Made by a program: the position numbers and the translations under genes. Source: an uncultured Acidobacteriota bacterium (GTDB taxonomy: Bacteria; Acidobacteriota; Thermoanaerobaculia; UBA5066; Gp7-AA6). From it: 64,000 bases of DNA. The notes below the pieces were generated by a model, which had not been told where the DNA came from, made no database searches, and was given only the letters and a program-made list of their open reading frames with translations. The DNA is taken from assembly GCA_963736455.1 (NCBI GenBank), contig CAVTON010000001.1, positions 778,270-842,269 of the forward strand, written 5' to 3'. Within the stretch, counting starts at the first letter, position 1. Each line of letters starts with the position of its first letter. Below are positions 28,495 through 60,799 of this stretch, in pieces.

Positions 28495-28518
28495 AGGTTT
28501 AGGACCGACAAGGTTAAC

Positions 28519-35253: not shown

Positions 35254-36768
35254 CTAGCGGGTGATTTCCTCTCGCCGAATCGGAAGCCGGCCGCTGAGCT
35301 TCGCCAGTCTCCTCAACCGCTCCGCGAGCTCCGGGCGCCAGGCATCCGCGGGCGCTCGCCAACCCCAGTTGCCGGCGGGCTCGGAAGGCGTGTTCATGCG
35401 CGCCTCGCTGCCGAGGCCGAGCACGTCCTGGAGGGGCACGACCGCGCGGTCGGCGACCGAGCCGTAGGCGGCGCGAATGAGCGTCCATTCGATTTCGCGC
35501 CCATCGCCGCCGAGGTAGTCGAAGACGCGCTCCCGCTCCTCGGGTTTCAGGGCGGCATACCAGCCGCGCGCGGTGTCGTTGTCGTGCGTCCCCGTGTAGA
35601 CGACGCCATTCGGGACGTGGCGATGCGGCAGATATTCGCTGTCGGATCCGTAGAAGGCGAACTGCAGGACCTTCATCCCGGGAAAGCCCAGCTCGTCGAG
35701 CAGCGTCCGCACCGCGGGCGTGATGTCTCCCAGATCCTCGGCGAGAATCGGGAGGGGACCGAGGGCGGCGCGCGCCGCGTCGAAGAGACGCCGCCCCGGC
35801 CCCGGGACCCAGCGGCCTCCGAGCGCCGTCTTCTCGACCGCGGGGATCGACCAGTACGACTCGAAGGCGCGGAAGTGGTCGATGCGCAGCAGGTCGCAGG
35901 ACGCGAGGCACGAGCGGATGCGCGCGATCCACCAGGCGTAGCCTTCGTCCTCCAGACGGTCCCAGCGATAGAGGGGATTGCCCCAGAGCTGACCGGTCGT
36001 GCTGAAGTAGTCGGGAGGCACGCCGGCGACGTCGGTCGGACGCCCGGTTCCGTCGAGCTGGAAGAGGTCCTGGTTGCCCCAGACGTCCGCGCTGTCGTGG
36101 GCCACGTAGATGGGGATGTCTCCGATGAGCGCGATGCCGCGCCCGTGCGCCTCGCCGCGGAGGCTCTCCCACTGACGACGAAAGAGAAACTGCACGTAGC
36201 GGTGAAAGGCCATCTCGTCGGCGAGCTCCGCGTCGGCCGCCGCGAGCGCGTCCCGATCGCGGAACGCGAGATCCGGCCCCCAGTCGGTCCACGGACGCCC
36301 GCCCAGGCGCGCCTTGAGCGCGGCGAACCGCACCCAGTCCTCGAGCCAGGGCTTCTGCGCGGCGCCGCGCACGAACGCCAGGAGCTCCTCGCGCAGCGGC
36401 GATGAGCCGGCGGTCCCGGAGAAGCGCGTCCAGGATTCGCGCAGCAGCCGCTCCTTCCAGCCGCGGGCCGCGGAAAAGTCCACGCGCCCCCCCGCCCACG
36501 GCGCTTCGGCGAGGGCGCCGGAGGCGAGCAGGTCCTCCTCGACCAGGCGCTCGGGCGAGATCAGCAGCGGGTTGCCGGCAAACGCCGAGGCGCTCGTGTA
36601 GGGCGAGTGGCCGGCGCCCGTCGGACCGAGCGGGAGCACCTGCCACAGCGTCTGCCCCGCGGATTCGGCCCAGGCGAGGAAGCGCGCCGCGGAGGGGCCG
36701 AGATCGCCGACCGGCAAAGGTCCGGGCAGCGACGTCGGATGGAGGAGGATCCCGGCGCAGCGCGTCAT
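35254..36768 (-). CDS. malQ: 4-alpha-glucanotransferase (amylomaltase, GH77)
   Basis: GILLHPTSLPG ... LRIDHFRAF ... GTHDNDT signature blocks; 504 aa. Confidence 0.9.
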   Translation of the reverse strand: MTRCAGILLHPTSLPGPLPVGDLGPSAARFLAWAESAGQTLWQVLPLGPTGAGHSPYTSASAFAGNPLLISPERLVEEDLLASGALAEAPWAGGRVDFSAARGWKERLLRESWTRFSGTAGSSPLREELLAFVRGAAQKPWLEDWVRFAALKARLGGRPWTDWGPDLAFRDRDALAAADAELADEMAFHRYVQFLFRRQWESLRGEAHGRGIALIGDIPIYVAHDSADVWGNQDLFQLDGTGRPTDVAGVPPDYFSTTGQLWGNPLYRWDRLEDEGYAWWIARIRSCLASCDLLRIDHFRAFESYWSIPAVEKTALGGRWVPGPGRRLFDAARAALGPLPILAEDLGDITPAVRTLLDELGFPGMKVLQFAFYGSDSEYLPHRHVPNGVVYTGTHDNDTARGWYAALKPEERERVFDYLGGDGREIEWTLIRAAYGSVADRAVVPLQDVLGLGSEARMNTPSEPAGNWGWRAPADAWRPELAERLRRLAKLSGRLPIRREEITR

Positions 36769-36799
36769 GCTCGGCGAGCGCCGGAGGGCGCTGGCGCGG

Positions 36800-39343: not shown

Positions 39344-39392
39344 CTCGCCGGCTAGTGTAGCAGAGGCGAAACGAGCGCTAAGCCTCGATGGG

Positions 39393-46266: not shown

Positions 46267-49200
46267 ATGGGCGTCGTCTACCGCGCCCGCGATCCGCTGC
46301 TGAATCGGGAGGTGGCGGTCAAGCTGATTCCCTCGGCGGACCTGACCCCCGAGCTCGAGGAGCGGTTTCAGCGCGAGGCGCAGCTGGTCGCGCAGATGGA
46401 CCATCCCTCGATCGTTCCGATCTACGACCTCGGACGTCACGAGGGCTCCCTCTTCTTCGTCATGCCGGTGGCGAGCGGCACCAACCTGCTGCGCCTGATC
46501 CGGGACCAGTCCCTGCACCTCGGCGAGGTCGTCGACCTCGGCATTCAGGCCGCCGAAGCGCTCGACTACAGCCACTCGCGGGGCGTCGTGCACCGCGACA
46601 TCAAGCCCGCCAACATCATGGTCACCCGCGACGACGGTGCGAGCGTGCGGGTCCGCGTCATGGATTTCGGCCTCGCCCACTCCTCGACGGAGTCGCGGCT
46701 GACAAAAACGGGCACGCTCGTCGGAACGGTCGCGTACCTTTCGCCGGAGCAGGTCGCCTCGAGGGCCTTCGACGGCCGCTCCGACATCTACTCGCTCGGC
46801 GTCGTGCTCTACGAGTGCCTCATCGGCGAGCCGCCGTTCACCGGCGAGGTGCAATCCATCCTGTACCGCATCGTCCACGAGATTCCTCAGCCGCCGCGGG
46901 CCCTCGGGGCCGAGATCCGGGAGGAGCTGCAGGACATCATCCTGCGCTGCCTGGAAAAGGATGCCGCCCGGCGGCCGCAGAAGGCGGGCCAGGTCGCCGA
47001 CGCCCTGAGGCGCCACAAGTCGAGCCTCGCGACGGACGAGTTCCGGATGTCGGTCGCCCTCTCCGCGAGCCGGACGATCTCGCGGCCGGCCCTCTCGCTG
47101 TTCATCGGGCGCGAGAAGGAGTTCGCGGAGCTGCAGCGCCGCCTGAACGCCGCCCTGTCGGGCGACTGTCAGTTCGCCGTGGTGGCGGGAGAACCGGGAA
47201 TCGGGAAGACGCGCCTCCTCGAGGAGCTCAAGAACCTCGCGCAGGCGCGCAAGATACGCGTTCTCTACGGGAGGTTCGTCGAGCAGGACCGGTCCTTCTC
47301 GTATCAGGGATTCTCCGAGATCATCCAGGATTACTTCCGCTCGCGCGACGCGAACTCGCCGGGAGAGCGGCCCGACTTCTCGGATCTCGCCGCCGACCTG
47401 ATCGCTCTGTTCCCGCAGCTCTCCGAGGTCTCCGAATTGCGCGCCGCCGTCGGCGGCGACTCGCGAATCGCGGTGCCCGCCGCCGAGCGGAAGGTCGAGG
47501 ATCGCATCCAGATCTTCGAGCTGCTCGCCCGGACGATGGCGCGCATCGCTGGCGGCAAGCCCCTCGTCCTCATCCTCGAGAATCTCCACGGGGCCGAGAT
47601 TTCGATCGAGGCCCTGCAGTACGTCGTCCGCCGGCTCGGGCCCACGCCGACGCTGATCGTCGGCAGCTATCGCCAGACCGAAACGGATCGCCGGCACCCG
47701 TTGACGAAGATGCTCGACTCCTTCGTCGACGATCCCCGTTTCGTCTCCCTGACGCTTCCGCCCTTCTCGCCGTCGGAGCATCGGGCCCTGGTCGAGTCGC
47801 TCGTCGGCGCCCCGAGGGTCTCGGACGAGCTGGCTCTCAGGCTGCGCGACGCGACCGAGGGGAATCCCTTCTTCACGAAGGAGCTCATCCGCTCCCTCGT
47901 CGAGTCGGGAGGCATCGCGCGCGACGACACCGGCGGCTGGAGCTTCTCGAAGGAGGCGGAGATCTCGGCCGACGCCCTGCCGGCGACGATCCAGCAGGCC
48001 GTCGAGAAGCGCGTCGAGCGGCTGCCGGAAGAGCTGCGCGACCTTCTCTCGATTGCCTCCGTCCTGGGGAAGTCGTTCGACTCCCGCGACCTCGAGACCA
48101 TGGCCGAAGGAGCGAAGGGAATCGAGGACTCGATCGACCGGCTGATTCTCGAGGGCATCCTGGAGGAGGACCGCGAATCCCGCGGCGACCGGCTGACGTT
48201 CGCCAGCGGCATCGTCCGCGACGTTCTCTACGGAGCCCTCTCGCGCCGGCGGCGGAGGTCCCTCCATCGCAAGTACGCCGAGCTCATCGAGCAGCGCTCG
48301 GCCGGCCGGCTCGAGCGCGTCTACCCGGAGCTCGTCCACCACTACTGGCAGGGCGACGTGCCGGAGAAGACCGTCGACTACGCGTTGAAGCTCGCGCGGA
48401 AGTCGCTCGACACCTTCAACCCGGAAGACGCGATCCGCGTCGCGAAGATCGCGCTCGAATTCCTCGAGGACGAGGACTGGTCGGGGGACGCGTCCCTCGA
48501 GGGCGAGGCGCGCCTGATGCACGCCCAGGGCCTGCGCATGACCGGAAACGTCGACGGCGCCCTGCGCGAGGCGGAGGCCGCCGCGAAGGTGTTCGACGCG
48601 GCCAGACAGCCGGCCCGATCGGTCGCGGCCACCCTGTTCGCCGCCGAGGCCGCGTGGCAGGCGCGCCGGATCGACGACGCCCGGCGCTGGGTCGAGCGGG
48701 GGATCGACGCCGCTCGCTCGGCGAATGAAAACGGCGCCCTCGTCAAGCTGCTGTCTCTCGGGGCGACCGTCGCGAACCTTCGCGGCGAGCACGCGCGAGC
48801 GACGGCGTACCAGGCCGAGATGGGAGCCCTGGCGCCCGGAGAGCCGTCGCCCGGCGAGGAGGAGATTCCGCGCGGCGGCACGCTCATCGTGGCCATGCCG
48901 AGCCCCGTGGCCGCGACCGAGCCGGCGATCTACGACACGACCGAGGAGCACGAAGTCCTCGCCAACGTCTTCGAGACCCTGGTCACCGTCGACCCCCAGG
49001 GAAACCTGGCCCCCCAGCTCTGCGAGCGCTGGACCATGCTGAACGGCGGCGGCGCGATGGAGCTTCACCTGAGGCGAGGCGTTCTCTTCTCGGACGGATC
49101 CGTGCTGAACGCGGCCGCCGCAAAGTCCGCCCTCGAGCGCTCGATCCGGCTGTCGCGCGAAGTCCTGCCGGCCGCGTTCACCGCCGTCGAGGGGGTGGGC

Positions 49201-51885
49201 GACTTTCTCGACGGAAAGGCTCCGGCCGTTTCCGGGATCGAAGCGGCCTCCGACGACGTGCTCCGCATCCGGCTCGTCCATCCCGTACCGATTCTGCCGT
49301 CCCTGCTGACGGACGGCCGCACCGCGATCGCGGCGGCCGGAGCGGGAGGTCCGGGCCCGCCGCTCGGAACGGGCCCCTTCCAGCTCGCCTCGCATTCGCC
49401 CGAGGCGACCGTGCTCGAGCGCAACCCGCGGTACTGGAAACCTCCCGGACCGCCGCTCGACCGCATCGAGTTTCGAGCTTCCATGTCGCCGGCCGAGATC
49501 GCCGAGGGAATCCGGACGGGGCGGATCGACGTCGCCCGCGACCTGCTCCCCCAGGATCTCGAAAGCCTCCTGCGGGAGCCTCGCCTGAGGGGCGGCCTGG
49601 TGGAGACGATCAAGAAGAACGCGTACTTCGCGGTCTTTCACCAGGCGGGCGTGGCGGGCTCGAATCCCGCCCTGCGGGCGGCCCTCGCGGGACTCGCGCG
49701 GACACAGGATTTCGTCTGGGGCGCTCTCGGACGCTTCGCGCTGCCCGCGACGGGCGTCATTCCGCCCGGGATCCTCGGCCATGACCCCGGCCGCCGCCAA
49801 CCTCACCTCCCGCGCGAGAAGGCGCTCGAGATGATTCGCTCGGCGGGCTTCGCGGGACCCGTGCGTTTGCGAGCGGTGATCCATCCCATCCTGCAGAACC
49901 AGTACGCGGCCCTCACGCAGGCGCTCCTGCGCCTGTGGTCCGACGTGGGCGTCGAGGTCGAGGTGGCGACGACGGCCATGCCCGCCTACCTCGACGCCTG
50001 GAACGCCGCCTCGGGCGTCGACCTGCTCATCGGACGCTGGATCGCCGACTACGACGACCCGGACAACTTCACGCACAACCTCTTCCATTCGGTCAACGGC
50101 CGGCTGCGGACATACTTCTCCTCTCCGGAGATGGACCAGCTGCTCGAAGAAGCCCGCGCCGAGCCTCGGTCCGCCGCGCGCGAGACCCTGTACCGGAGAA
50201 TCGAGCACAGCCTTCTCGATCCGGGAATCCTCATCCCTCTCTTCCACGACGTCGCCTACCGCATCGCGAGCCCGGCCGTCCGAGGAATTCAGCTGCACAC
50301 GACCGCGCCCTACGTCAACTACGCCGAACTCGGGAAGGCCTCGGCGGCGCCCGCGGCGGAAGCGCCGGAACACGGGATCGGGGGCGGGGTCCTGCACGTC
50401 CCGATCCAGGGGGTCGTCCGCAGCCTCGACATCTCGTTGACGAGCACCGTCGAGCAGGCCGACGTTCTGCCGAGCATCTTCGAGACGCTGACCTGGGCCA
50501 TCGAAGGAACCCGCATCGTGCCCTGGCTCGCCTCGGAGGTCCTCATGGAGAACGGAGGCTCGCGCTTCCGGATCCGCCTCCAGTCGGGTGTGCGATTCCA
50601 TGACGGGCGCCGGCTCACGGCTCGCGATGTCCGCCACTCCTGGGAGCGCCTGCTCCTGAGTCCGGCGAGCGAGAGCCGCTACGTCCTCTCGGTCATCCGG
50701 GGCGCCGGGCGCCTCCTCGACGCAACGGCCTCGGACCTCGCCGGGTTCCACATCCTGTCGCCGACGGAATTCGTGGTGGATCTCGACAACCCGGTCCCCT
50801 TCTTCCCGGCGATGATCTCGTACGCCGCCACGGCCATCGTTCCGGAAGGAACCGCGGCGATCGGCCCGAGCGTCCGCGAGGGCGCCATCGGCACCGGCGC
50901 CTTCCGAGTCGTCAGCTTCGAGCCGGGCCGGCGCCTCGAGCTCGAGCGCAACCCCCATTACTGGCGCGCCGACCGCCCGCGCGCCGACGGCGTAGTCTTC
51001 CACCTCGGTCTGCCGCCCGAAGAGGTTCGCAACGAGTTCCTGGCCGGCCGGCTCTCGATCGCGCGCGACCTGCTTCCGGCCGACGCGGAGGCCTTTCGTC
51101 ACGATCCGCGGTTCGCTTCCGGCTATCGCGAGAGCCCTCGCCTCACGACGTACATCGTGACGTTCAGCACCCGCCGCGGTCCGCTGCGCGACGCCGAGGC
51201 ACGCCGCGGCGTGCTTCGAGCGCTCAAGACGGCCGGGCTCGTGCGCCGCACCCTCGGACGCCTGGCGATCCCGGCGCACGGCCTGATTCCGCCGGGCCTT
51301 CTCGGCTACTCGGCCAGCCCGCCGGATTCCGGCCGGCGCGCGGCCGGCGACTCGTCCCCCTCGGACAGCTCGGTCGAGGCCACGGTCTCGCGCGAGACCG
51401 TCGACCTGGCGGCCGCGGTGCACCCGATCTTCTTCGGCGAGTTCGCGAATTACTTCAAGGAGCTCAATGAGGCGTTCCGGGAGATCGGCTATCGCCTCCG
51501 GCCGGCCAACCAGACCATGGCCGAATACCTCAAGCTCTCCGATGCGGGTGATGCGGACGTCGACGTCGGCCGCTGGACGGCGGACTACCCGGATACGGAC
51601 ACGTTCGCGTTCGGCTGCCTCCACACCTCGTCGGGGGCGTACCGGAATTACCTCGGGTCACCGGAGCTCGATCGCCTCGCGGAACGGGGGCGCGTCGAGA
51701 TCGACCCGCGCGTGCGGCACTCGGTGTACCGGCAGGTCGAGGAGCTGATCGCGCGGGACGCTCTCATGCTGCCGCTCTTCCACGATCAGGTCTATTGCTT
51801 CGCTCGGCCCGAGCTCCAGGGCCTGACCACGATCGGCCAGTCGAACGCCGTCATCCCCTACGAAGACCTCTGGATCCGGCGCTGA
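46267..51885 (+). CDS. Multidomain Ser/Thr protein kinase - STAND/AAA ATPase - TPR-like region - 2x SBP_bac_5 (OppA/DppA-like solute-binding) domains (1872 aa; true start probably about 60 nt upstream)
   Basis: Kinase: GRGGMGVVYRARD...AVKLI...HRDIKPANIMV...DFGLA...GTVAYLSPE. Walker A: VVAGEPGIGKTRLLEEL. SBP5 #1 from about 48875 (GGTLIVAMPS...MELHLRRGVLFSDGSVLNAAAAKSALERSI). SBP5 #2 from about 50383 (FRIRLQSGVRFHDGRRLTARDVRHSWERLL). The upstream in-frame sequence INTKLANRYEILGELGR (46210-46266) continues the kinase N-terminus but contains no ATG/GTG/TTG (only CTG at 46207). Confidence 0.8.
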   Translation: MGVVYRARDPLLNREVAVKLIPSADLTPELEERFQREAQLVAQMDHPSIVPIYDLGRHEGSLFFVMPVASGTNLLRLIRDQSLHLGEVVDLGIQAAEALDYSHSRGVVHRDIKPANIMVTRDDGASVRVRVMDFGLAHSSTESRLTKTGTLVGTVAYLSPEQVASRAFDGRSDIYSLGVVLYECLIGEPPFTGEVQSILYRIVHEIPQPPRALGAEIREELQDIILRCLEKDAARRPQKAGQVADALRRHKSSLATDEFRMSVALSASRTISRPALSLFIGREKEFAELQRRLNAALSGDCQFAVVAGEPGIGKTRLLEELKNLAQARKIRVLYGRFVEQDRSFSYQGFSEIIQDYFRSRDANSPGERPDFSDLAADLIALFPQLSEVSELRAAVGGDSRIAVPAAERKVEDRIQIFELLARTMARIAGGKPLVLILENLHGAEISIEALQYVVRRLGPTPTLIVGSYRQTETDRRHPLTKMLDSFVDDPRFVSLTLPPFSPSEHRALVESLVGAPRVSDELALRLRDATEGNPFFTKELIRSLVESGGIARDDTGGWSFSKEAEISADALPATIQQAVEKRVERLPEELRDLLSIASVLGKSFDSRDLETMAEGAKGIEDSIDRLILEGILEEDRESRGDRLTFASGIVRDVLYGALSRRRRRSLHRKYAELIEQRSAGRLERVYPELVHHYWQGDVPEKTVDYALKLARKSLDTFNPEDAIRVAKIALEFLEDEDWSGDASLEGEARLMHAQGLRMTGNVDGALREAEAAAKVFDAARQPARSVAATLFAAEAAWQARRIDDARRWVERGIDAARSANENGALVKLLSLGATVANLRGEHARATAYQAEMGALAPGEPSPGEEEIPRGGTLIVAMPSPVAATEPAIYDTTEEHEVLANVFETLVTVDPQGNLAPQLCERWTMLNGGGAMELHLRRGVLFSDGSVLNAAAAKSALERSIRLSREVLPAAFTAVEGVGDFLDGKAPAVSGIEAASDDVLRIRLVHPVPILPSLLTDGRTAIAAAGAGGPGPPLGTGPFQLASHSPEATVLERNPRYWKPPGPPLDRIEFRASMSPAEIAEGIRTGRIDVARDLLPQDLESLLREPRLRGGLVETIKKNAYFAVFHQAGVAGSNPALRAALAGLARTQDFVWGALGRFALPATGVIPPGILGHDPGRRQPHLPREKALEMIRSAGFAGPVRLRAVIHPILQNQYAALTQALLRLWSDVGVEVEVATTAMPAYLDAWNAASGVDLLIGRWIADYDDPDNFTHNLFHSVNGRLRTYFSSPEMDQLLEEARAEPRSAARETLYRRIEHSLLDPGILIPLFHDVAYRIASPAVRGIQLHTTAPYVNYAELGKASAAPAAEAPEHGIGGGVLHVPIQGVVRSLDISLTSTVEQADVLPSIFETLTWAIEGTRIVPWLASEVLMENGGSRFRIRLQSGVRFHDGRRLTARDVRHSWERLLLSPASESRYVLSVIRGAGRLLDATASDLAGFHILSPTEFVVDLDNPVPFFPAMISYAATAIVPEGTAAIGPSVREGAIGTGAFRVVSFEPGRRLELERNPHYWRADRPRADGVVFHLGLPPEEVRNEFLAGRLSIARDLLPADAEAFRHDPRFASGYRESPRLTTYIVTFSTRRGPLRDAEARRGVLRALKTAGLVRRTLGRLAIPAHGLIPPGLLGYSASPPDSGRRAAGDSSPSDSSVEATVSRETVDLAAAVHPIFFGEFANYFKELNEAFREIGYRLRPANQTMAEYLKLSDAGDADVDVGRWTADYPDTDTFAFGCLHTSSGAYRNYLGSPELDRLAERGRVEIDPRVRHSVYRQVEELIARDALMLPLFHDQVYCFARPELQGLTTIGQSNAVIPYEDLWIRR

Positions 51886-51897
51886 GAGGCGGCGAGG

Positions 51898-54471
51898 CTA
51901 GTCCGGAGAGGTCCCGCTCCGGATCCGCAGCGATCCCTCCTCGACCCAGTGGGCGAGCACTCGGCGGATGCGGTAGGAGTCGCTCGCCACGACCGCCTCG
52001 CAATCGACCGGGGTCGCGCCCTGGCTCACCCGCTCCCAGAGCGCCTGCAGAACGCTGCCGTCCTTCTCGCCGGGGAACGGAGTGGCCGCAACCCCCGTCC
52101 GCTCCAGCCGGACCGCGTCGGGCACCAGCACGGCGGCCTCCTGGAATTCGTCGTACCGGCGCATCGCCTCGAGGGTGAGCGGAAGAACCTCGCGGACCGC
52201 TTCCGCCGACGGGGGCGGCTCGCCTTTGACGAAGCTGAACTGGCCCGGAACGGGTTTTTCGAAGAGCTGGTAGAAGGCGTTTTCGCCCTGCAGGTGTCCG
52301 CGGCGGATGTCTGTCAGCTTTCCTCCGCGCAGTGCGATGCGGGCGAAGACGTCGCCGCCTTTCGGCCCTCGCAGCGTCAACGACCCGGAGGCGGAAGACT
52401 CGGCCAGGCTCTGCAGCAACGCGGGCAGGCCGAACACCTCGAGATCGCCCTGGAGGCTCGCGGCGGAGGCTTCGGGCGCTCCCGGAGCGGCCGGGACGGT
52501 CTCGGCGGCGGCGGGCTCCGCGGGCTTTGGCCGATCGAACCCCGAGAGCGCTTTCTTTGCGGCGCGTCCCGCGTCCTGCGCGCCGAACCGCGAGGCCATT
52601 TCCTCGAGCGCACGGCGGACGGAGGGCGCCGGCGTGCTCGCCAGCGCTTCTACGATGCGCACCAGGTTCTGATCGTTCTGCCGCAGCGTCATGCCGAGAA
52701 GCTTGAACGGGAGATTCGCCTTCAGGAGCGCGAGCAGCTGGTCGACGGTCTCGGTGTCCTCCGACATGTCCTGCCCGCCGAGCTCGGAGAGCCGCGCGAC
52801 CGTGTCCCCGAGCTGGGGCTGCTTGCGCCCGGCGTGGTCGATGAGCGCCCGGCGGGCTCGCGGGGCGGGAAGCTTGCCGAGCGTCGCGGCGACCCGGTCG
52901 AGCAGGGCCCGCAGGTCCTTGGCCTCGTACGGCGCGCCCTCGGGCTCGGCGAGCATGCCCTCGAGCTCGAAGAGCATCTGGGTCAGACCCTGCTCGGCGC
53001 GTTCGTCCTTGTACTGGGCGAGGGTCGCAACGGCTTCCTTGACCAGGACGAGGGGCAGGCCGAGCTGCGCGTGGCGCAGGACCACGTCGCTCTCTTCCTC
53101 GAAAGAGGCCTCGGGACTCTTCGGGATGCGGCGCAGGAGGTAAACGAGGTTGCGGCGGTAGAACCACTCCTCGTCGTCGACGGCCCGGGAAGGAACCCGG
53201 CTCAGCTCATGGTAGGCGGTCGCGCGGGCCGCCGCACCGTGGACCTCGAGCAACGCGAGGATCAGCCGGCGGCGGTCGCGCTTCTGCTCGCGGCGCAGCT
53301 CCTCGAGCAGGCCCTCCGGGCGAAAGGCGGTGAAGAACTGGAGGACCTTGCGCAGCAGCGAGTGCTGCTCCGGTTTCTCGGTGAACTTGCGCAGCTGCTC
53401 GCCGTCGAGCGTGTCTCCGAGCCGCCGGCGGACCAGCTCGACCGTTCCCGCATCCACCTTCTTCTCCGACGTCAGCCGGTCGGCGAGCTCGAGCATCGAG
53501 ACGGCCTGGGGGAGCGAGCCTTCGTTGAAGCGATCGATGCCCGCCCGGACCATCTCCTGGAAGCGCTTCCCGGCCTCGACGGGATCCTCGGCGTCGGCGA
53601 TGATGCGCCGCATCGCGCCGAGCGCCCCGGACTCGGGGACGGATGGCGCGCCCGCGGCGGAGGGCAAGGCCGGCATCACCCAGCCCGGGAGGGTCTGCGA
53701 GAGCGCCCGGAAGATGCTGTCGGTTCCCGCCTCGAGGCCCATCTGCTTCAGACGCGCGAGGTGCGCTTCGAGCTCCCCGGCCGAATGCGCGCTGCGTGCC
53801 GCGAAGGCCAGGGCCTCGCTCGCGCCGGGAGCGAGGGGGACGGGCGCGCCCGCGGGGACGACCGAGCCGAGCGCGGAGGCCGGAGCCGCCGCTCCCCCGG
53901 CCGGCCTCGCGAGGCCGCCCTGCGCCTCCAGGCGCTCCAGCACCAGGGAAAAGCGATGCAGCGTGTCGGCCTGCGTCTCTGCCGAGCCGGACGGCGCGGC
54001 GGAGCCCGCCGCGGCGGCGGAGGCGCTCGAGCGAGGCCCGCTGCCTTCGGTCGGCGCCTGTCGAAAGATGTTCTGAGCCTGGGAGATCGATGCCGGAGCT
54101 TCTCCGAGCCGCCCGAGGTTCTCGAGAAGCATCGCCCGGTCCTCCGCCGGGCACAACTGGAGGATCAGCGGACGCAGACCCGCCAGATAGGCCTCCAGGG
54201 GCTCGCGGGGCACGAGCCGGAACTCCGCCATCATCTGGATCTTCTTGAGCGTGTGGAACAGGTAGTCGGACACCGGAACGGCCGCGGCGCTGCCCCTCCG
54301 ATACTGCGCGCCCGTCCACGCCCGGATCGCGTCGGCGACGACGTCGGGCGGATATTTCATGAGCAGCTGCACCGAGTCCGCCACGATCAGGGGCGCGACC
54401 GCATCGGACAGGTACTGCTGCAGCTCGATCAGAGCCTCCTGCAGCTCCGGATTGGGCGGCTGGGCCGACAA
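51898..54471 (-). CDS. Large hypothetical protein with C-terminal DUF4388-like domain
   Basis: 857 aa; low-complexity Ala/Pro-rich middle; C-terminus GDLEVFGLPALLQSLAESSASGSLTLRGPKGGDVFARIALRGGKLTDI...GENAFYQLFEKPVPGQFSF matches the DUF4388 pattern. Confidence 0.5.
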   Translation of the reverse strand: MSAQPPNPELQEALIELQQYLSDAVAPLIVADSVQLLMKYPPDVVADAIRAWTGAQYRRGSAAAVPVSDYLFHTLKKIQMMAEFRLVPREPLEAYLAGLRPLILQLCPAEDRAMLLENLGRLGEAPASISQAQNIFRQAPTEGSGPRSSASAAAAGSAAPSGSAETQADTLHRFSLVLERLEAQGGLARPAGGAAAPASALGSVVPAGAPVPLAPGASEALAFAARSAHSAGELEAHLARLKQMGLEAGTDSIFRALSQTLPGWVMPALPSAAGAPSVPESGALGAMRRIIADAEDPVEAGKRFQEMVRAGIDRFNEGSLPQAVSMLELADRLTSEKKVDAGTVELVRRRLGDTLDGEQLRKFTEKPEQHSLLRKVLQFFTAFRPEGLLEELRREQKRDRRRLILALLEVHGAAARATAYHELSRVPSRAVDDEEWFYRRNLVYLLRRIPKSPEASFEEESDVVLRHAQLGLPLVLVKEAVATLAQYKDERAEQGLTQMLFELEGMLAEPEGAPYEAKDLRALLDRVAATLGKLPAPRARRALIDHAGRKQPQLGDTVARLSELGGQDMSEDTETVDQLLALLKANLPFKLLGMTLRQNDQNLVRIVEALASTPAPSVRRALEEMASRFGAQDAGRAAKKALSGFDRPKPAEPAAAETVPAAPGAPEASAASLQGDLEVFGLPALLQSLAESSASGSLTLRGPKGGDVFARIALRGGKLTDIRRGHLQGENAFYQLFEKPVPGQFSFVKGEPPPSAEAVREVLPLTLEAMRRYDEFQEAAVLVPDAVRLERTGVAATPFPGEKDGSVLQALWERVSQGATPVDCEAVVASDSYRIRRVLAHWVEEGSLRIRSGTSPD

Positions 54472-54567: not shown

Positions 54568-55650
54568 CTAGGCCGGCGAGATGGTCAGATCGCCGCTCGA
54601 GGTGCGGACCCGAATGTGCGCGCCCCCCGAGCCGCGCCGGTATCCGACGACGCGATCGGAATGGCTGATCTCCGTTCCGTCGGAAAACCGCACGTCCATG
54701 TCTCCGCTGGACTGGTCGGCATCCACGTCGAAGCTCATCCCCTCCGGCAGGCGCAGCGAGACGTCGCCGCTCGAGGTCCGAATCCGCGCATCGCGCAGCC
54801 CGGTGCCGGCGGCCTCGAAGGTCACATCGCCGGAGCTGGCCCGCGCCGAGAACTCCTGGAGGTCGGCGTCCGTCAGGCGGATGTCCCCCGAGGTGGAGTC
54901 GAACTCCGCGCGGCGGGCCTTGACCGAGCGCAGCCCGACGTCGCCGGAGTTCGTGTGAAAGGAGAGGGAGTCGCCCTCGAAGCCCTCGAGATCGCAGTCG
55001 CCGCTCGAAAAATCGGACGACCAGCTCCCCTTGATGTCGCGGGCGCGGATGTCGCCGGAAGAGCCCTCGAGGGTCAGCTTCCCGTCGAGGCGGCGCAGGC
55101 GCAGGTCCGCGCTCGACACCCGGAAGGCGAGCTCGCCCCGAATCCCGTCCGCGTCCACACGTCCCACGAGATTCGCAAAGGCGGCCGAGACGCTCGCCGC
55201 CGGAACGCGCACGTCCAGGTCCGCGTAGACCGAGGACCCGCGGCCGCGATTGATCCGCACGCGGTGTCCGTCGTACTCGTAGGATTCCGAGCTCGACCAT
55301 CCGAAGAAGCCGTCGTCGTCCCCGCGCTCCCGATAGCGGAACGTCGAGATCCTGTCGTACGGATACCGGACACGCAGGGTCGCCTCGCCGTTTCCTCCGC
55401 TCACGCGCTCGAGCCGGACGGCGTCGGCGAGCTCCGCGGTGTCGGCATGGACCGTGGCCACGATCTCGATCGCGGAACCCGTCCCCGCCGTGATCCGCAT
55501 CGTTCCGAGCAGATTCTCGACCGCGAAACGGGAGGCGTCGGCCCCGGTCAGCTCGGCGCGGACGGTCCGGACCGTTTCCGCCCGAACCGGAGGAGCGGAA
55601 GCCAGCAGCGCACCCAGGGCGAGGACCGACGACAGCACCGATACACGCAT
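54568..55650 (-). CDS. DUF4097-family secreted beta-rich protein (putative adhesin-like)
   Basis: Signal peptide; repeated SSGDI/SGDV beta-strand units (SSGDIRARDIKG, TSGDIRLTDADL, SSGDVSLRLPEG, SSGDLTISPA) typical of DUF4097/DUF4098. Confidence 0.6.
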   Translation of the reverse strand: MRVSVLSSVLALGALLASAPPVRAETVRTVRAELTGADASRFAVENLLGTMRITAGTGSAIEIVATVHADTAELADAVRLERVSGGNGEATLRVRYPYDRISTFRYRERGDDDGFFGWSSSESYEYDGHRVRINRGRGSSVYADLDVRVPAASVSAAFANLVGRVDADGIRGELAFRVSSADLRLRRLDGKLTLEGSSGDIRARDIKGSWSSDFSSGDCDLEGFEGDSLSFHTNSGDVGLRSVKARRAEFDSTSGDIRLTDADLQEFSARASSGDVTFEAAGTGLRDARIRTSSGDVSLRLPEGMSFDVDADQSSGDMDVRFSDGTEISHSDRVVGYRRGSGGAHIRVRTSSGDLTISPA

Positions 55651-55784
55651 GAATCCTCCGGGGCGCCCGGGTCGGGGCGCCGTAATTCCGGTTACGCCCC
55701 ATGGGGAGAAAGGTTCCCGGATTTCTGGCGATCGGAGCCATCCGGGAAACCTTTCGGGCGGGCATGCGTACCTGAGACCGAAAG

Positions 55785-55816
55785 GCTAAAAAATTCGCAC
55801 ATGCTAATTTTTTAGC
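55785..55816. promoter_or_regulatory. AT-rich dyad (candidate BlaI-family operator) upstream of blaI
   Basis: GCTAAAAAATT-cgcacatgct-AATTTTTTAGC: 11-bp perfect inverted arms around a CATG-centred core, 29 nt upstream of the blaI ATG, in a genome that is about 70% GC. Confidence 0.45.
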
Positions 55817-55844: not shown

Positions 55845-56237
55845 ATGGCCGCGAAAAAGCCCGTCTCCAACTTCTCGCGCCGGGAACGCCAGATCATGGA
55901 AGTGCTCTACCGCGACCGCCAGGCCACGGCGGGCGAGGTGCTCGAACGCCTTCCGGATCCCCCGGGTTACTCGGCCGTCCGCGCCCTGCTCCGCATCCTC
56001 GAGAACAAGGGGCACGTCCGCCACCAGATCGACGGAAACCGGTACGTCTACGAGCCGCGCCTGACCCGCGAGCGCGCGGGACGGCCCGCCCTCGCGGGCG
56101 TGATCGAAACGTTCTTCGACGGCTCGACCGAAAAGGCCGTGGCCGCCCTGCTCGACCTTTCCCGCGCCGACCTCTCGGAAGCCGACTTCGACCGCCTGTC
56201 CGATCTGATCGAACGGGCTCGACTGGAGGGACGCTGA
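55845..56237 (+). CDS. blaI: BlaI/MecI/CopY-family transcriptional repressor
   Basis: SRRERQIMEVLYRDRQATAGEVLERLPDPPGYSAVRALLRILENKGHVRHQIDGNRYVYEP winged-helix penicillinase-repressor signature; 130 aa; GGAGGG RBS. Confidence 0.85.
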   Translation: MAAKKPVSNFSRRERQIMEVLYRDRQATAGEVLERLPDPPGYSAVRALLRILENKGHVRHQIDGNRYVYEPRLTRERAGRPALAGVIETFFDGSTEKAVAALLDLSRADLSEADFDRLSDLIERARLEGR

Positions 56238-56238
56238 C

Positions 56239-58602
56239 ATGGACCTGCTCACCTCGCTGACTTCGATCTCGGCCGGCATCGCGGTCCGGGCAACCATCCT
56301 GTTCGCGGCGACGGCGGCCGCGCTTTTCGTCCTGAGGCGGGCGAGCGCCGCGACCCGGCATCGGGTCGCCACCCTGGGGCTCGCCGCCGGCCTCCTCCTG
56401 CCCCTGCTCTCGCTCGCGCTGCCCCGCATCCCGGTCGGGCTGCTCTCGCGCTTTGGGTCAGACGGCGCCGCCTCCTCGCCGGGCCGCGGGCTCTGGCTCG
56501 TCGCCTTCTGGACGGTGGGCACCCTCGTCGTCGGCGCGCGCGTCGCGGTGGGATGGTCCCGTGTGCGCCGCCTCGCCCGGGACGCCTCGACCCTGACGGA
56601 CGCGGAGTGGATCGCCGAGAGAGACGAGGCTTCCCGCCGTCTCGCCGTCCCCCGGCCGGTCGCGCTGAAGGAGAGCGAAGACGTTCCGGTCGCCATCACG
56701 TCCGGCTGGCGCCGTCCGCTGCTCCTCGTGGGCCGGGCCGCGCGCGACTGGGCGGTCGAGCGCCGCCGCGTCGTGCTTCTGCACGAGCTCGCTCACGTCA
56801 AGCGCGCCGACTGGCCCGCGCTCCTTCTCACCGAGGCCGCGGTGGCGCTCTACTGGTTCCATCCCCTCGCGCTCTGGCTCGGCCGGCGCGTGCGCAGGGA
56901 GGCGGAGCAGGCCTGCGACGAGATGGTGATCGCGGCGGGAACGAAGCCCTCGGTCTACGCCGGGCACCTGCTCGGGATCTTCCGCTCCGTCGGCGCCCCG
57001 CATCCGGCGGTGCCCGCGCTCGCCATCGCCCGTCCTCATCATTTCGAGGCACGCCTGCGCGCGATCCTCGACCCGGCGGCGCCGGGCGGCAAGGGCATGA
57101 ACGCGATGGGACGCCTCGCCGTCGCCGGACTGGCGGCGGCGAGCGCCGCCGTCCTGGCCTTCGAGCCGCCGCCGCCGCACCCCGTGAGTCTCCGGTCCGC
57201 GAGCTGTGTCCTGGCCGCGTCCGGAGCGGGAGCGCCTGCGGGTTCCGATGACGTCCCGTGCCGCAAGAAACACGAGACCCGGATCGAGAGCGTGGCGGTC
57301 CAGACCCGCGAGCATCGGATCGAGATCCGGCGGACGGCCACGCAGGAGCGCACGCAGATCGACGAGCGCACCGTCACCGACGAATCGCAGGCGCCGGCGC
57401 TTCCGGAACCGGGCGCGAGCTTCCCCGCAATCTGGCGGGTGGACGCGGGCTCGGCGCCCCGGTCCGACATGGGATTCGTGAAGGCTTCCAACTCGCGCAA
57501 GACCCCCCGCGACGGGAGCGACTGGTACGGGCGGGGCATGGACCTCCACAACGGCGGCCACTACGAGAAGGCGATCGAAGCCTTCGAGAAGGCGATCGAG
57601 GACGGCTATCGCGAGGACGCGGCGAGCTACAACATCGCGTGCGGCTATGCCCTTCTCGGAGACAAGGACAAGGCGTTCGAGTGGCTGCACAAGGCGATGG
57701 ATGAAGGCTTCGACCTCGCGTCCTACCTCAGGAGTGACGACGACCTCGAGGACCTCCACGGCGACCCGCGCTGGGCCGAGATCAAGGCCGCGGCGCGCGA
57801 TCAGAAGTCGAGCGAGGCGCAGGCCGAGGCGCGCCGCGCCTCGACGCGGTACGAGCACCTCGTCGCGCGCAATCCCGAGAGCGGCGAGCCGTACTTCGAC
57901 ATGGGGCGCGAGCTCCTTCGCGCGGACGTCTACGACCTCGCGGCCAGGGCCTATGAGGCCTCGGCCGCGCACGGCTATCGCGTCTCGACCTCCCTCTACA
58001 ACGAAGCGTGCGCCCGATCGCTCGCCGGCCAGAAGGCCGAGGCCCTCGATCTGCTCCGGAAGGCGCTCGACGCCGGATTCGATCAGCCCGACCTCTTCGA
58101 CAAGGACGACGACCTCGACAACGTGCGTAGCGACCCGCATTTCGCGGCGCTCGCCGCCGAAGCGGAGGAGCTCTCTCTTCCCGGCTACGGCGTCGGACCC
58201 TGGAACTGGAACTCCCGTTCGAACCGCGCGAAGTGGCGTGACGCCGCGAAGCGCTTCCTCGCGTACGCCGACAAGCATCCGCAGTCCGGGCGCGCCTGGT
58301 ACAACGCCGGATTCTCCCTGCTCGCCGGCGACCGCGCCGACGAGGCCGCGGCGCCGTTCCGGAAGGCCCTGGATCTCGGCTACCGCAAGGACACGACGAT
58401 GTACAACCTCGCCTGCACGTACGCGCGGCTCGATCAGAAGGACCAGGCTTTCGACTGGCTCTTCAAGGCCCTCGACGCCGGCTTCGACGAGCAGTGGACA
58501 CTGCGGCACGACGACGACCTCGACAATCTGCGAGGCGACAGCCGGTACCGCAAGGCGGTCGAGATCGCGCGGGCGCGGGACCGGCAGGCCGAAAAGGACT
58601 AG
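56239..58602 (+). CDS. BlaR1/MecR1-like M56-peptidase signal transducer with non-canonical C-terminal repeat sensor domain
   Basis: Starts 2 nt after the blaI stop. 4 N-terminal TM helices, M56 zinc motif VLLHELAHVKRAD and downstream EQACDE. The C-terminal about 360 aa consist of three ~100-aa TPR-like repeats (…YNIACGYALLGDKDKAFEWLHKAMDEGFD…DDDLEDLHGDPRW / …YNEACARSLAGQKAEALDLLRKALDAGFD…DDDLDNVRSDPHF / …YNLACTYARLDQKDQAFDWLFKALDAGFD…DDDLDNLRGDSRY) in place of a penicillin-binding domain. Confidence 0.8.
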   Translation: MDLLTSLTSISAGIAVRATILFAATAAALFVLRRASAATRHRVATLGLAAGLLLPLLSLALPRIPVGLLSRFGSDGAASSPGRGLWLVAFWTVGTLVVGARVAVGWSRVRRLARDASTLTDAEWIAERDEASRRLAVPRPVALKESEDVPVAITSGWRRPLLLVGRAARDWAVERRRVVLLHELAHVKRADWPALLLTEAAVALYWFHPLALWLGRRVRREAEQACDEMVIAAGTKPSVYAGHLLGIFRSVGAPHPAVPALAIARPHHFEARLRAILDPAAPGGKGMNAMGRLAVAGLAAASAAVLAFEPPPPHPVSLRSASCVLAASGAGAPAGSDDVPCRKKHETRIESVAVQTREHRIEIRRTATQERTQIDERTVTDESQAPALPEPGASFPAIWRVDAGSAPRSDMGFVKASNSRKTPRDGSDWYGRGMDLHNGGHYEKAIEAFEKAIEDGYREDAASYNIACGYALLGDKDKAFEWLHKAMDEGFDLASYLRSDDDLEDLHGDPRWAEIKAAARDQKSSEAQAEARRASTRYEHLVARNPESGEPYFDMGRELLRADVYDLAARAYEASAAHGYRVSTSLYNEACARSLAGQKAEALDLLRKALDAGFDQPDLFDKDDDLDNVRSDPHFAALAAEAEELSLPGYGVGPWNWNSRSNRAKWRDAAKRFLAYADKHPQSGRAWYNAGFSLLAGDRADEAAAPFRKALDLGYRKDTTMYNLACTYARLDQKDQAFDWLFKALDAGFDEQWTLRHDDDLDNLRGDSRYRKAVEIARARDRQAEKD

Positions 58603-59267
58603 GAGCGAGGAACTCCGGGCGGAACGCCCGGCGGCTTCCCTGACGCGAGGCGCTCGAGATCCTTCGGCTCGTCGAGATCCGCCAGCCGGTCGGCGGGCCA
58701 CGAAACGGTCCGGGCGTGGCCGCGGCGGCGCCGGATGATCTCGCGGCCCGGTTCGTCGCCCTCGGCGATCTCCGCAAATAGCGGGCGCGCATAGAGCGTC
58801 GGCGGCGCCGCGACGCCGCCGTAGTCGGAGAGGACGAGTGGGGCGCCGGTTTCCCGGTGAAGGGCGGCGACGGCTCCGATCATCTCGGCCGTCACGTACG
58901 GCATGTCCGCAAGAATCACCACGGCGGCGCCGGCCTCATCCGGGACCGCCGCGATTCCGGCACGAAAGGACGAAGCCTGACCGCTCGCGTGCTGCGCATG
59001 GAAGAGCGGCCGGAAGGGGACGCCGTCCAGCGCCCGTCGGACGCGCTCCGCTTCGTGCCCGAGGACGACGATCACGGGGTCGAGCCCGGCATCGGCCGCC
59101 GCTCGCGCCGCCCGCGCCACGAGGGTTTCTCCATCGACGCGCAGGAGCAGCTTGTTGACGCCCATTCGCGTCGAGGAGCCCGCGGCGAGGACGACCGCGG
59201 CGATGCCGTACTCCCCGGCCTCAGGCGGCATGGGAATCAACGTACACCGGCCGTCCCGGAGGGTCAA
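58599..59267 (-). CDS. MobA-like NTP transferase domain protein (molybdenum cofactor cytidylyl/guanylyltransferase-like)
   Basis: AAVVLAAGSSTRMGVNKLL nucleotide-binding motif; the start may be at the internal Met (59231); convergent 4-nt overlap with the blaR1-like stop. Confidence 0.6.
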   Translation of the reverse strand: MTLRDGRCTLIPMPPEAGEYGIAAVVLAAGSSTRMGVNKLLLRVDGETLVARAARAAADAGLDPVIVVLGHEAERVRRALDGVPFRPLFHAQHASGQASSFRAGIAAVPDEAGAAVVILADMPYVTAEMIGAVAALHRETGAPLVLSDYGGVAAPPTLYARPLFAEIAEGDEPGREIIRRRRGHARTVSWPADRLADLDEPKDLERLASGKPPGVPPGVPRS

Positions 59268-59305: not shown

Positions 59306-60421
59306 ATGCCCGACACCGAGATCGCGGTCATCGGGGCGGGCGTCGTCGGCCTCGCGGTGGCGGCCCGTCTCGCTGCCGAGCATCCCGGGCTGATTGTTCT
59401 CGAACGCAATCCCCGGCACGGGATGGAGACGTCGAGCCGCAACAGCCAGGTCATCCACGCGGGTATCTACTATCCGGCCGGATCGCTCAAGGCCCGTTTC
59501 TGCGTCGAAGGCCGCGAGCGCGTCTACGAACTCTGCCGCCGCCACGACATCCCGCACGCGAAGCTCGGCAAGATCATCACCGCGTCGGTTCCCGAGGAGC
59601 TTCCGGCGCTGGATGCGATCGAGGCGGCCGCACAACAGAACGGCGTCGTGCTCCAGCGACTGTCGGCAACGGAGGCGCGCGCCCTCGAGCCGAACATGCG
59701 GACGGCCGGCGCGCTGCTGTCGCCCGAGTCGGGCATCGTGGATGCGCACGGCCTCATGGATGCGCTGCTCGCGCGGGCGGCGGCGGGCGGCGCGATCTTC
59801 CAGCCCCGCGCGCCGGTCGTGAACGTCGAGCGCGTTTCCGATGGATACCGGATCACCGTCGGCGGCGCGTCGGGAACGGAATCGTTCACCGCCGAGCGCG
59901 TCGTCAACGCCGCGGGGCTCGAGGCCGACTCGATCGCCGCCCTCGCGGGGATCGACGTCGACGCGGCCGGCTACCGCCAGCATCTCTGCAAGGGCAGCTA
60001 CTTCTCGGCCGCGCCGCGATGCGCCAGGCTCGTCTCGCGCCTGGTCTATCCCGTTCCCGCGCGCGAGAGCCTGGGCGTCCACGTGGTCCTCGACACGGGG
60101 GGCCGGATGCGCTTCGGGCCGGACGCGGAGTTCCTGGCGGATCGCCGCTACGACTATCGCGTGGATCCGTCGAGGCGCACGGCGTTCGCCGAGGCGGCCC
60201 GGCGCCTCCTGCCAAGCATCCGCGACGAAGACCTCGAGCCCGACATCAGCGGGATCCGACCGAAGCTGCAGGTCCGGGGCGGCCCGTTCCGCGACTTCGT
60301 CGTCGCCGAGGAGTCGGCGCGTGGGCTACCCGGTTTCTACGATCTCATCGGCATCGAATCGCCCGGCCTGACCGCCGCTCCGGCGATCGCCGAAGAGATC
60401 GCGCGCCTGATCCGGGGTTAG
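59306..60421 (+). CDS. lhgO: L-2-hydroxyglutarate oxidase/dehydrogenase-like FAD-dependent oxidoreductase
   Basis: IAVIGAGVVGLAVAARL ... VLERNPRHGMETSSRNSQVIHAGIYYPAGSLKA is characteristic of LhgO/YgaF; 371 aa. Confidence 0.75.
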   Translation: MPDTEIAVIGAGVVGLAVAARLAAEHPGLIVLERNPRHGMETSSRNSQVIHAGIYYPAGSLKARFCVEGRERVYELCRRHDIPHAKLGKIITASVPEELPALDAIEAAAQQNGVVLQRLSATEARALEPNMRTAGALLSPESGIVDAHGLMDALLARAAAGGAIFQPRAPVVNVERVSDGYRITVGGASGTESFTAERVVNAAGLEADSIAALAGIDVDAAGYRQHLCKGSYFSAAPRCARLVSRLVYPVPARESLGVHVVLDTGGRMRFGPDAEFLADRRYDYRVDPSRRTAFAEAARRLLPSIRDEDLEPDISGIRPKLQVRGGPFRDFVVAEESARGLPGFYDLIGIESPGLTAAPAIAEEIARLIRG

Positions 60422-60799
60422 AAGGGGGCCCTCACGCGTGCCCTGTCCCGCGGGAGAGGGGGTAACAGAGCTCGTCACGCCCATCTCTCCAACCGCTCGC
60501 GGCGTGAGAAGTCACCCGAGCGAAGCGAAGGTGGAGGCTCACGCCGCGGGAGCCGCAGCGTACCCCGGTTTCTACGATCTCATCGGCATCGAATCGCCCG
60601 GCCTGACCGCCGCTCCGGCGATCGCCGAAGAGATCGCGCGCCTGATCCGCGGTTAGAAGAGGGGCCCCTCACCCCTGCCCTCTCCCGCCGGGAGAGGGGG
60701 TGAGAGCTCGTCACGCCCACCTCTCCAAACAGCTCGCGGCGTGAGAAGTCACCCGAGCGAAGCGAAGGTGGAGGCTCACGCCGCGGGAGCCGCAGCGTA
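60332..60799. repeat. Tandem direct duplication, 2 x about 235 bp (about 93% identical), containing the last about 27 codons of lhgO plus about 150 bp of structured downstream sequence; a third partial copy of the cgagcgaagcgaagg core is at about 60865
   Basis: 60332-60566 and 60567-60799 align base-for-base, for example ggtttctacgatctcatcggcatcgaatcgcccggcctgaccgccgctccggcgatcgccgaagagatcgcgcgcctgatcc(g/c)gggttagaag. Each copy carries a 10-bp perfect hairpin gcggcgtgag-N27-ctcacgccgc. The ORF 60438-60656 is the duplicated lhgO tail. Confidence 0.7.

Follow-up and report, generated by a model that had tools for sequence, protein, structure and literature searches.

A BlaI/BlaR-type gene pair from an uncultured Acidobacteriota bacterium with a predicted periplasmic triple-TPR domain in place of the penicillin-binding sensor

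We analyzed a 64,000-nt (64-kb) stretch of DNA, hereafter the window, from an uncultured Acidobacteriota bacterium of the class Thermoanaerobaculia (assembly GCA_963736455.1, contig CAVTON010000001.1, positions 778,270 to 842,269). It contains, at positions 55,845 to 58,602, a gene for a BlaI-family repressor followed by a gene for an M56-family membrane protease, in which three tetratricopeptide repeat (TPR) modules occupy the place of the penicillin-binding sensor domain of BlaR1. Every BlaR/BlaI feature that could be tested in silico was found, with the exception of this sensor domain, supporting the view that the M56-TPR pair works like a BlaIR system that is not a β-lactam sensor. We conclude that the two genes probably constitute an autoregulated switch of the BlaI/BlaR family that acts by the regulated proteolysis typical of the family.

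The G+C content of the whole window is ~70%, which leads to long spurious open reading frames (ORFs) everywhere on both strands. With third-position GC contents of ~0.79 and ~0.90, respectively, the plus-strand ORFs at 55845-56237 (repressor, 130 aa) and 56239-58602 (M56 protease, 787 aa) behave as coding frames, and we therefore regard them as real genes. Long antisense ORFs at the same locus were rejected as high-GC artefacts on the basis of the same comparison. The 2 genes are translationally coupled across a 1-nt gap (TGA-C-ATG), and their products matched the Pfam families Penicillinase_R and Peptidase_M56, bearing out the initial annotation of this locus as a closely coupled BlaI/BlaR1-type pair. 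Features of the locus are listed below in window coordinates.

55746..55770, plus strand: promoter-like element of the extracytoplasmic function (ECF) type, GAAAC-N16-CGTA, of the blaI-blaR operon
55785..55798, no strand: putative operator dyad 1, GCTAAAAAATTCGC, with one mismatch to GCTAA-N4-TTAGC
55803..55816, no strand: putative operator dyad 2, GCTAATTTTTTAGC, with perfect palindrome arms, 28 nt upstream of the blaI start codon
55845..56237, plus strand: winged-helix repressor of the BlaI/MecI/CopY family, 130 aa (evidence: PF03965, alignment with 1p6r, conservation)
56239..57162, plus strand: M56 gluzincin protease part, residues 1-308, with transmembrane helices TM1-TM3, predicted cytoplasmic protease and TM4
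56782..56796 and 56905..56919, plus strand, within the M56 part: HELAH and E223-xxx-D227, respectively
57163..57507, plus strand: disordered, predicted periplasmic linker, residues 309-423 (evidence: AlphaFold2 confidence score, pLDDT, <50; motif conservation)
57508..57804, plus strand: TPR module 1, residues 424-522, with two TPR motifs and a TPR-end cap
57871..58173, plus strand: TPR module 2, residues 545-645
58213..58602, plus strand: TPR module 3, residues 659-787, and the stop codon; the most conserved module

The product of the first ORF matched Penicillinase_R (PF03965; E = 3.4e-25) over profile positions 2-114 of 115, and its N-terminal winged helix (residues 5-74) aligned with BlaI of Bacillus licheniformis (1p6r). 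The 130-aa protein has both the winged-helix DNA-binding domain and the C-terminal dimerization domain of the PF03965 family, and is 50-92% identical across all related loci. A C-terminal CxCx4-5CxC site in a protein of this kind would indicate a copper repressor that acts without a protease partner. The repressor contains no such CopY-type metal site, nor any cysteine at all, and scored 37 bits against the CopY model TIGR02698, the cut-off of which is 122.

The product of the second ORF matched Peptidase_M56 (PF05569; E = 9.8e-21) over residues 86-275. Its zinc motif, HELAH at residues 182-186, corresponds to HEYAH of Staphylococcus aureus BlaR1 (8exp alignment), and E223 and D227 align with the third zinc ligand motif of BlaR1, E242-xxx-D246. 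The M56 domain is thus canonical, as initially described from its HELAH site, and its ExxxD motif is likewise intact. Since these residues are intact and H182, E183, H186, E223 and D227 are invariant in 63 homologues, the protease is predicted to be active.

Hydropathy and the AlphaFold2 model placed hydrophobic helices at residues 9-31, 44-64, 84-105 and 289-308, with arginine-rich loops after TM1 and TM3, such that a single transmembrane helix (289-308) separates the protease from the C-terminal region. The modeled fold superposes on that of BlaR1. A further hydrophobic stretch (193-215) forms part of a hairpin (191-232) situated between the zinc ligands, which AlphaFold2 models as a helical hairpin; because H182/H186 and E223 must share one zinc ion, this hairpin cannot cross the membrane. 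Many TPR-only proteins that consist of a stand-alone three-module array start with Sec-type signal peptides, which argues that the array is an extracytoplasmic unit. Taken together, the hydropathy profile, the match to the BlaR1 fold and the signal peptides of stand-alone homologues fit the BlaR1 arrangement, with 3 N-terminal helices, a cytoplasmic protease and TPR modules in the periplasm, the location that had been proposed for the repeats.

The C-terminal region comprises 3 copies of one module (residues ~424-522, 545-645 and 659-787) with pairwise identities of 33-47% and inter-module BLASTP E values of 1e-28 and 8e-23. The initial annotation described three TPR-like repeats of ~100 aa. 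The repeats and their quoted motif stood up to scrutiny, YNxAC...GFD...DDDLDxL..D being the invariant core of the modules, while 2 points were refined: the repeat period is 123-135 aa, corresponding to a ~100-aa folded module plus a spacer, and the modules are true TPRs with a TPR-end cap, beyond TPR-like. In domain searches, the C-terminal modules matched TPR_1/TPR_2 (Pfam; E values of 1e-12 to 1e-13), PF22316 (ABhydrolase-like_N; Pfam; 55 bits, cut-off 27; three stretches) and NF047558 ('TPR end-of-group domain'; NCBIfam; 153 bits, cut-off 32; three stretches). An alignment of 63 sequences served as input for the AlphaFold2 model, in which the region 424-787 consists of helices only, with a pLDDT mostly >90, and no β structure follows TM4; Foldseek returned only TPR proteins as structural neighbours of the C-terminal part. 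Neither Pfam nor NCBIfam matched a transpeptidase or penicillin-binding protein (PBP) family (PF00905, BlaR1 sensor) in the M56-TPR protein, and the NCBIfam model blaR1_generic matched residues 87-232 only, with 67 bits against a cut-off of 400. The fold named beforehand as decisive against the annotation, a PBP/transpeptidase domain in the C-terminus, was therefore found neither by these profile searches nor in the all-helical model.

TM4 and the first module are joined by a ~110-residue linker (about residues 309/314-423) with a pLDDT <50. Although variable, this linker retains short motifs that are conserved across the family, namely a single cysteine (Cys341), (F/L)PA(I/V)W and GFVxAS(N/K). 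We also considered docking of a tether motif on the TPRs, for which the AlphaFold2 model offered no support (pLDDT ~40 at residues 405-420). Every one of the 63 homologues aligned contains three modules, and a distinct set of invariant residues characterizes each module; it is on this basis that the triplication appears to be old and under selection.

Clustering at 90% identity gave more than 669 protein clusters with the M56 plus triple-TPR architecture, a lower bound obtained from 8,000 scored candidates. A scan of one genome per species yielded 157 relatives, the best 80 of which were kept and gave 77 distinct loci, representing at least 77 species. All 77 derive from metagenome-assembled genomes, and almost all are labeled Acidobacteriota or Thermoanaerobaculia, with a few Holophagales, Deltaproteobacteria and Myxococcales. 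blaI lies directly upstream of the M56 gene in each of the 66 loci with upstream DNA. The recurrence of the same domain set across clusters and relatives, together with the module-specific invariant residues, indicates purifying selection on the whole architecture. Word-indexed searching with a single module returned only short fragments lacking the architecture, and exhaustive HMMER searching was used instead. With module 3 as the query, this retrieved 9,862 proteins at E <= 1e-3, of which 202 reached E <= 1e-30; three stretches were matched in most. Among 71 matches of atypical length that were scanned, 32 contained M56 and nearly all others contained TPRs only; the stand-alone secreted three-module proteins occur in varied gene contexts. 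Database names for these proteins include 'beta-lactamase regulating signal transducer with metallopeptidase domain / TPR repeat protein' (JGI) and 'M56 family metallopeptidase' (NCBI). Full-text literature searches uncovered no publication that deals with an M56-TPR protein or with BlaIR systems of Thermoanaerobaculia.

About 40 nt upstream of blaI we found an AT-rich double palindrome, GCTAAAAAATTCGC-ACAT-GCTAATTTTTTAGC (55785-55816), with an 18-nt operator unit, TGCTAAWTTTTTAGCAYN. Its 2 dyads are the sole matches to GCTAA-N4-TTAGC in the window, and the pattern occurs nowhere else in the window even when up to 2 mismatches are allowed. We counted operator conservation in the 66 species-level loci that contain blaI and extend at least 160 nt upstream of it. 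A dyad with at most 1 mismatch precedes blaI in 64 of these 66 loci, and a second dyad is positioned exactly 18 nt from the first in 62; no further dyads were found anywhere else in 521 kb of related loci. Thus, the suggestion that a regulon might be identified by searching for the operator elsewhere did not succeed, as neither the window nor the related loci contained a site beyond the blaI upstream region. The double dyad fits autorepression, being a palindromic putative operator near the promoter of its own operon.

The double dyad lies between the -10 element of the promoter-like sequence and the blaI start codon. ECF sigma factors recognize a consensus with AAC at -35 and CGT at -10, exemplified by TGAAAC-N16-CGTA for σW of Bacillus subtilis, and by consensus match the blaI promoter resembles this type. 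An ECF-like element is located upstream of the operator in 39 of the 66 loci. In the clade to which the window belongs, 14-19 nt separate the -10 end of GAAAC-N16-CGTA from the start of the dyads downstream; in a more distant clade, the promoter element is TTGAC and the operator overlaps its spacer and -10 region. Either arrangement appears to place the operator where it would block RNA polymerase. The pattern GRAAC-N16-CGTA has 2 matches in the window, compared to 0.28 expected, and they form a back-to-back pair. The second match precedes a divergent gene for a DUF4097 protein:

55693..55717, minus strand: ECF-type promoter-like element, GGAAC-N16-CGTA, before the divergent DUF4097 gene

Wherever a related locus contains the DUF4097 gene, this minus-strand motif is kept. 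In a sister subclade, the same ECF-like motif was observed before a HlyD/MacB-like efflux pair (L028:5633) that closely follows the M56 gene. The motifs shared by blaI, the DUF4097 gene and the efflux pair suggest a small regulon of an alternative sigma factor.

A metagenome scan with the 16-mer TGCTARWTTTTTAGCA returned at least 120 stretches. Among the 120 matches listed, 14 lie directly beside BlaI homologues of 50-64% identity. In 6 of these 14 stretches the M56 partner was scanned, and the C-termini differ from the triple TPR: one has TPR plus TonB_C (L123), two have a weak TPR_19 or HHH_5 match, and three have no known domain. The TPR array itself was present in one other locus, L136. 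Because the same 16-mer adjoins BlaI/M56 pairs with other C-termini, the repressor, operator and protease appear to form a conserved chassis on which the sensor domain has been exchanged. A few high-GC sites without blaI among the matches listed (L085, L101, L107 and L179) are single and unrelated and allow no interpretation.

The pair shares with BlaR1/BlaI and MecR1/MecI of S. aureus and B. licheniformis the M56 gluzincin with HExxH and ExxxD, four transmembrane helices and a cytoplasmic protease, as well as a PF03965 winged-helix repressor and tandem palindromic operator dyads near the promoter. It differs from them in that the class-D-β-lactamase-like/PBP sensor is replaced by a disordered tether and three TPR modules, in its gene order (blaI, then blaR), in the lack of a linked β-lactamase or PBP2a gene, and in its operator half-sites, which are GCTAA/TTAGC rather than the TACA/TGTA of BlaI and MecI. 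The three-TPR units of Hop/Sti1 (TPR1 and TPR2B), CHIP, Sgt2 and PP5 are eukaryotic cytosolic proteins or parts of them that clamp EEVD C-termini, and the likeness of our modules, which are of Hop-TPR1 size, is structural only. NF047558 and PF22316 are domain models without an assigned function, of which a triple array fused to M56 represents a specific use.

Kurtz et al. (2026) surveyed ~15,000 M56 proteins in 254 architectures and found ~96% of M56 genes within 5 genes of blaI, but a transpeptidase domain in only ~6% of the proteins; they concluded that BlaIR systems sense diverse, unknown signals (PMC13492132). The claim that the replaced domain implies a non-β-lactam cue is hence a reasonable inference, but the situation is far less unusual than the initial annotation implied. 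Fusion to TPRs is not among the nine M56 architectures with at least 100 entries (PMC13492132). CenIR of Clostridioides difficile (PMC13492132), as well as BlaIR of Mycobacterium tuberculosis and M. abscessus and PvmSR of Pseudomonas aeruginosa (bioRxiv 10.64898/2026.08.03.742534), likewise pair M56 with BlaI in the absence of a transpeptidase domain and are presumed to respond to non-β-lactam signals. In contrast to their C-termini, which are short, unstructured or absent, that of the M56-TPR protein is a large, confidently folded and highly conserved triple TPR. M56-TonB_C proteins, the second most common M56 architecture in InterPro (PMC13492132), combine the same chassis with another periplasmic domain, and the metagenome relative L123, which has the same operator, bears both TPRs and TonB_C. 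The locus represents a variant found throughout its lineage, in a family whose members were already known to respond for the most part to signals other than β-lactams. The triple-TPR sensor, the GCTAA-type operator and the putative ECF-type promoter are new, while the kind of system is already known.

Regulated proteolysis is the mechanism shared by the M56/BlaI family (PMC13492132). With the parts, their conservation and the operator position as observed, and the fold and orientation as predicted, the pair would operate as follows. One or more BlaI dimers, whose DNA binding we infer, would occupy both dyads and prevent blaI-blaR, and probably also unlinked targets, from being transcribed. A periplasmic ligand, presumably a protein or peptide by analogy with three-TPR units, would bind the TPR array and signal through TM4; this signal would activate the cytoplasmic M56 protease, leading to cleavage of the repressor and de-repression, as in canonical BlaR1/BlaI. 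In the window's clade, where the operon would be read from an ECF-type promoter, expression would need an active alternative sigma factor in addition to relief of BlaI repression.

Several points weigh against this scheme. No member of the M56-TPR family has been the subject of an experiment, and no ligand, cleavage site or target gene has been identified for the pair. The Asn-Phe dipeptide at which S. aureus BlaI is cleaved is not at the equivalent position of the repressor, which reads AVAALLD|LS in our alignment. TPR domains often serve as scaffolds rather than as ligand sensors. The ECF-type assignment of the promoter derives from a consensus match, and no sigma factor was found among the window ORFs tested. 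Finally, no operator precedes any neighbouring gene, leaving a regulon beyond autoregulation as conjecture.

A more ambitious version of the scheme, which we think unlikely, would join these elements: the triple TPR as a true periplasmic receptor for proteins or peptides, expression gated by both an ECF-type sigma factor and BlaI proteolysis, and wiring of the pair into an envelope-stress regulon. Ligands of such a receptor may be the exposed C-terminal tails of mislocalized envelope proteins, or the protein's own tether motif GFVxASN may act as a displaceable pseudo-ligand; the regulon may also drive the DUF4097 ('toastrack') gene and, in sister clades, the MacAB-like efflux pump. If this holds, sensing of a protein or peptide would be demonstrated for a BlaR-type protease for the first time. 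It is possible, if doubtful, that the TPR array is instead a docking platform that tethers the protease to an envelope complex or to a separate sensor protein, with the decision made elsewhere, by ECF-sigma expression or by a partner. The generic role of TPR domains as protein-protein interaction modules, the specialized ECF-like promoter on the operon and the varied gene contexts of stand-alone secreted three-module proteins are all compatible with such a scaffold. However, no partner gene is conserved, the DUF4097 and PatA_N genes being confined to the closest clade and the downstream genes varying, and the extracytoplasmic C-terminus is the input domain in all characterized BlaR proteins (PMC13492132).

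We judge it quite improbable that the M56-TPR protein serves mainly as a membrane quality-control protease, comparable to HtpX or to BepA, which joins an M48 protease with TPRs, and that the BlaI-like protein is an ordinary autoregulator rather than a substrate. M48 is related to M56, both being membrane or periplasmic zincins with an HExxH motif, and the operator is found on no target besides the operon itself, as such a role would allow. On the other hand, the 1-nt coupling and the adjacency of blaI and blaR in 66 of 66 loci are a hallmark of a repressor/protease pair, and the protease and TPRs are here predicted to lie on opposite sides of the membrane, cytoplasmic and periplasmic, whereas both are periplasmic in BepA. 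A cytoplasmic TPR array, with a topology unlike that of BlaR1, is very improbable: the fifth hydrophobic stretch (193-215) could in principle add a membrane crossing, but it falls between H186 and E223, zinc ligands that must be on the same side, and the modeled helical hairpin, the superposition on BlaR1 and the signal peptides of stand-alone arrays argue against it as well. We attach next to no credence to a cryptic penicillin-binding or transpeptidase fold through which β-lactams would still be sensed. The lack of a PF00905 or BlaR1-sensor match, the weak blaR1_generic hit outside the C-terminus, the absence of β strands from residues 424-787 at high confidence and structural neighbours that are all TPR proteins speak against it, and structure prediction refutes such a fold. 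Compared with these alternatives, we favor the autoregulated proteolytic switch.

BlaIR regulated proteolysis has just been recognized as a general signalling chassis, most inputs of which are unknown (PMC13492132), and most non-canonical BlaR C-termini, being short or unstructured, offer no handle on the signal. A large, modular, confidently folded and highly conserved domain, predicted to be periplasmic, combined with a sharply defined operator makes this pair a tractable model for non-β-lactam sensing by BlaR proteins. The pair also adds a signalling system to the Thermoanaerobaculia, which live in soil and sediment and for which hardly any experimental genetics exists. We regard the gain as incremental rather than conceptual.

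Genes surrounding the pair were also surveyed. The divergent neighbour is the following:

54568..55650, minus strand: secreted DUF4097 'toastrack'/LiaG-like protein, 360 aa, with signal peptide (evidence: PF13349, 2.7e-29; NCBIfam LiaG below cut-off)

This gene is found in only ~13 of the 77 related loci, all in the closest clade, and for that reason we rejected its product as an obligate partner or ligand. It is followed on the same strand by a gene for an 857-aa PatA_N (DUF4388) protein (51898-54471, minus), and conservation of this pair is limited to the loci most closely related to blaI-blaR. Adjoining the PatA_N gene, as also in L002, L003 and L005, is a gene for a giant 1,872-aa fusion (46267-51885, plus) of a Ser/Thr protein kinase, an AAA_16 ATPase and solute-binding protein family 5 (PF00496, two stretches). 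Genes downstream of the M56-TPR gene vary among related loci, and from the neighbours, none of which is preceded by an operator, neither a partner protein nor a target gene could be named.

A gene for a MobA/MocA-like nucleotidyltransferase (58599-59267, minus) converges on the M56-TPR gene with a 4-nt stop overlap. Genes of the xanthine-dehydrogenase/CO-dehydrogenase family or accessory genes (MobA-like, XdhC, MoCoBD) are located downstream in 19 of the 77 loci (e.g. L005, L006 and L009-L013), and an unrelated stand-alone secreted triple-TPR protein (P0190, in L204) is encoded 15 nt after a Fer2-MoCoBD-FAD_binding_5 operon. We did not adopt a functional link to these clusters, which probably reflects lineage synteny or coincidence, as other stand-alone arrays have unrelated neighbours. 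Further downstream, a tandem duplication at 60329-60799 consists of two copies of a ~236-nt unit that are 84-100% identical. It covers the last ~95 nt of a DAO-family oxidase gene (59306-60421) plus the downstream spacer and creates a 72-aa ORF (60438-60656) with a duplicated C-terminus; the DAO-OprB spacer measures 492 nt in the window compared to 225 nt in the closest relative, L001.

Elsewhere in the window, a gene cluster at 375-2546, 5610-10526 and 13224-15458 (all plus) encodes membrane proteins of very large size that contain DUF2298 and PMT_2 (glycosyltransferase family 39-like) domains, one of these proteins being 1,638 aa long with C-terminal NHL repeats; a GDP-mannose-dehydratase-like epimerase gene (4536-5603), a GT2 gene and a UbiA prenyltransferase gene are found near this cluster. 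Two adjacent genes (16255-17037 and 17158-17955, both minus) encode paralogous ~260-aa proteins with a C-terminal S-layer homology (SLH) domain and occupy the sole stretch of lower G+C content (0.65) in the window. A full three-domain LigD (phosphoesterase, ligase and primase-polymerase; 946 aa) is encoded at 28231-31071 (plus), and a glycogen-metabolism group at 35254-44287 comprises genes for a 4-α-glucanotransferase, a glucan phosphorylase-like protein with DUF3417 and a branching enzyme.

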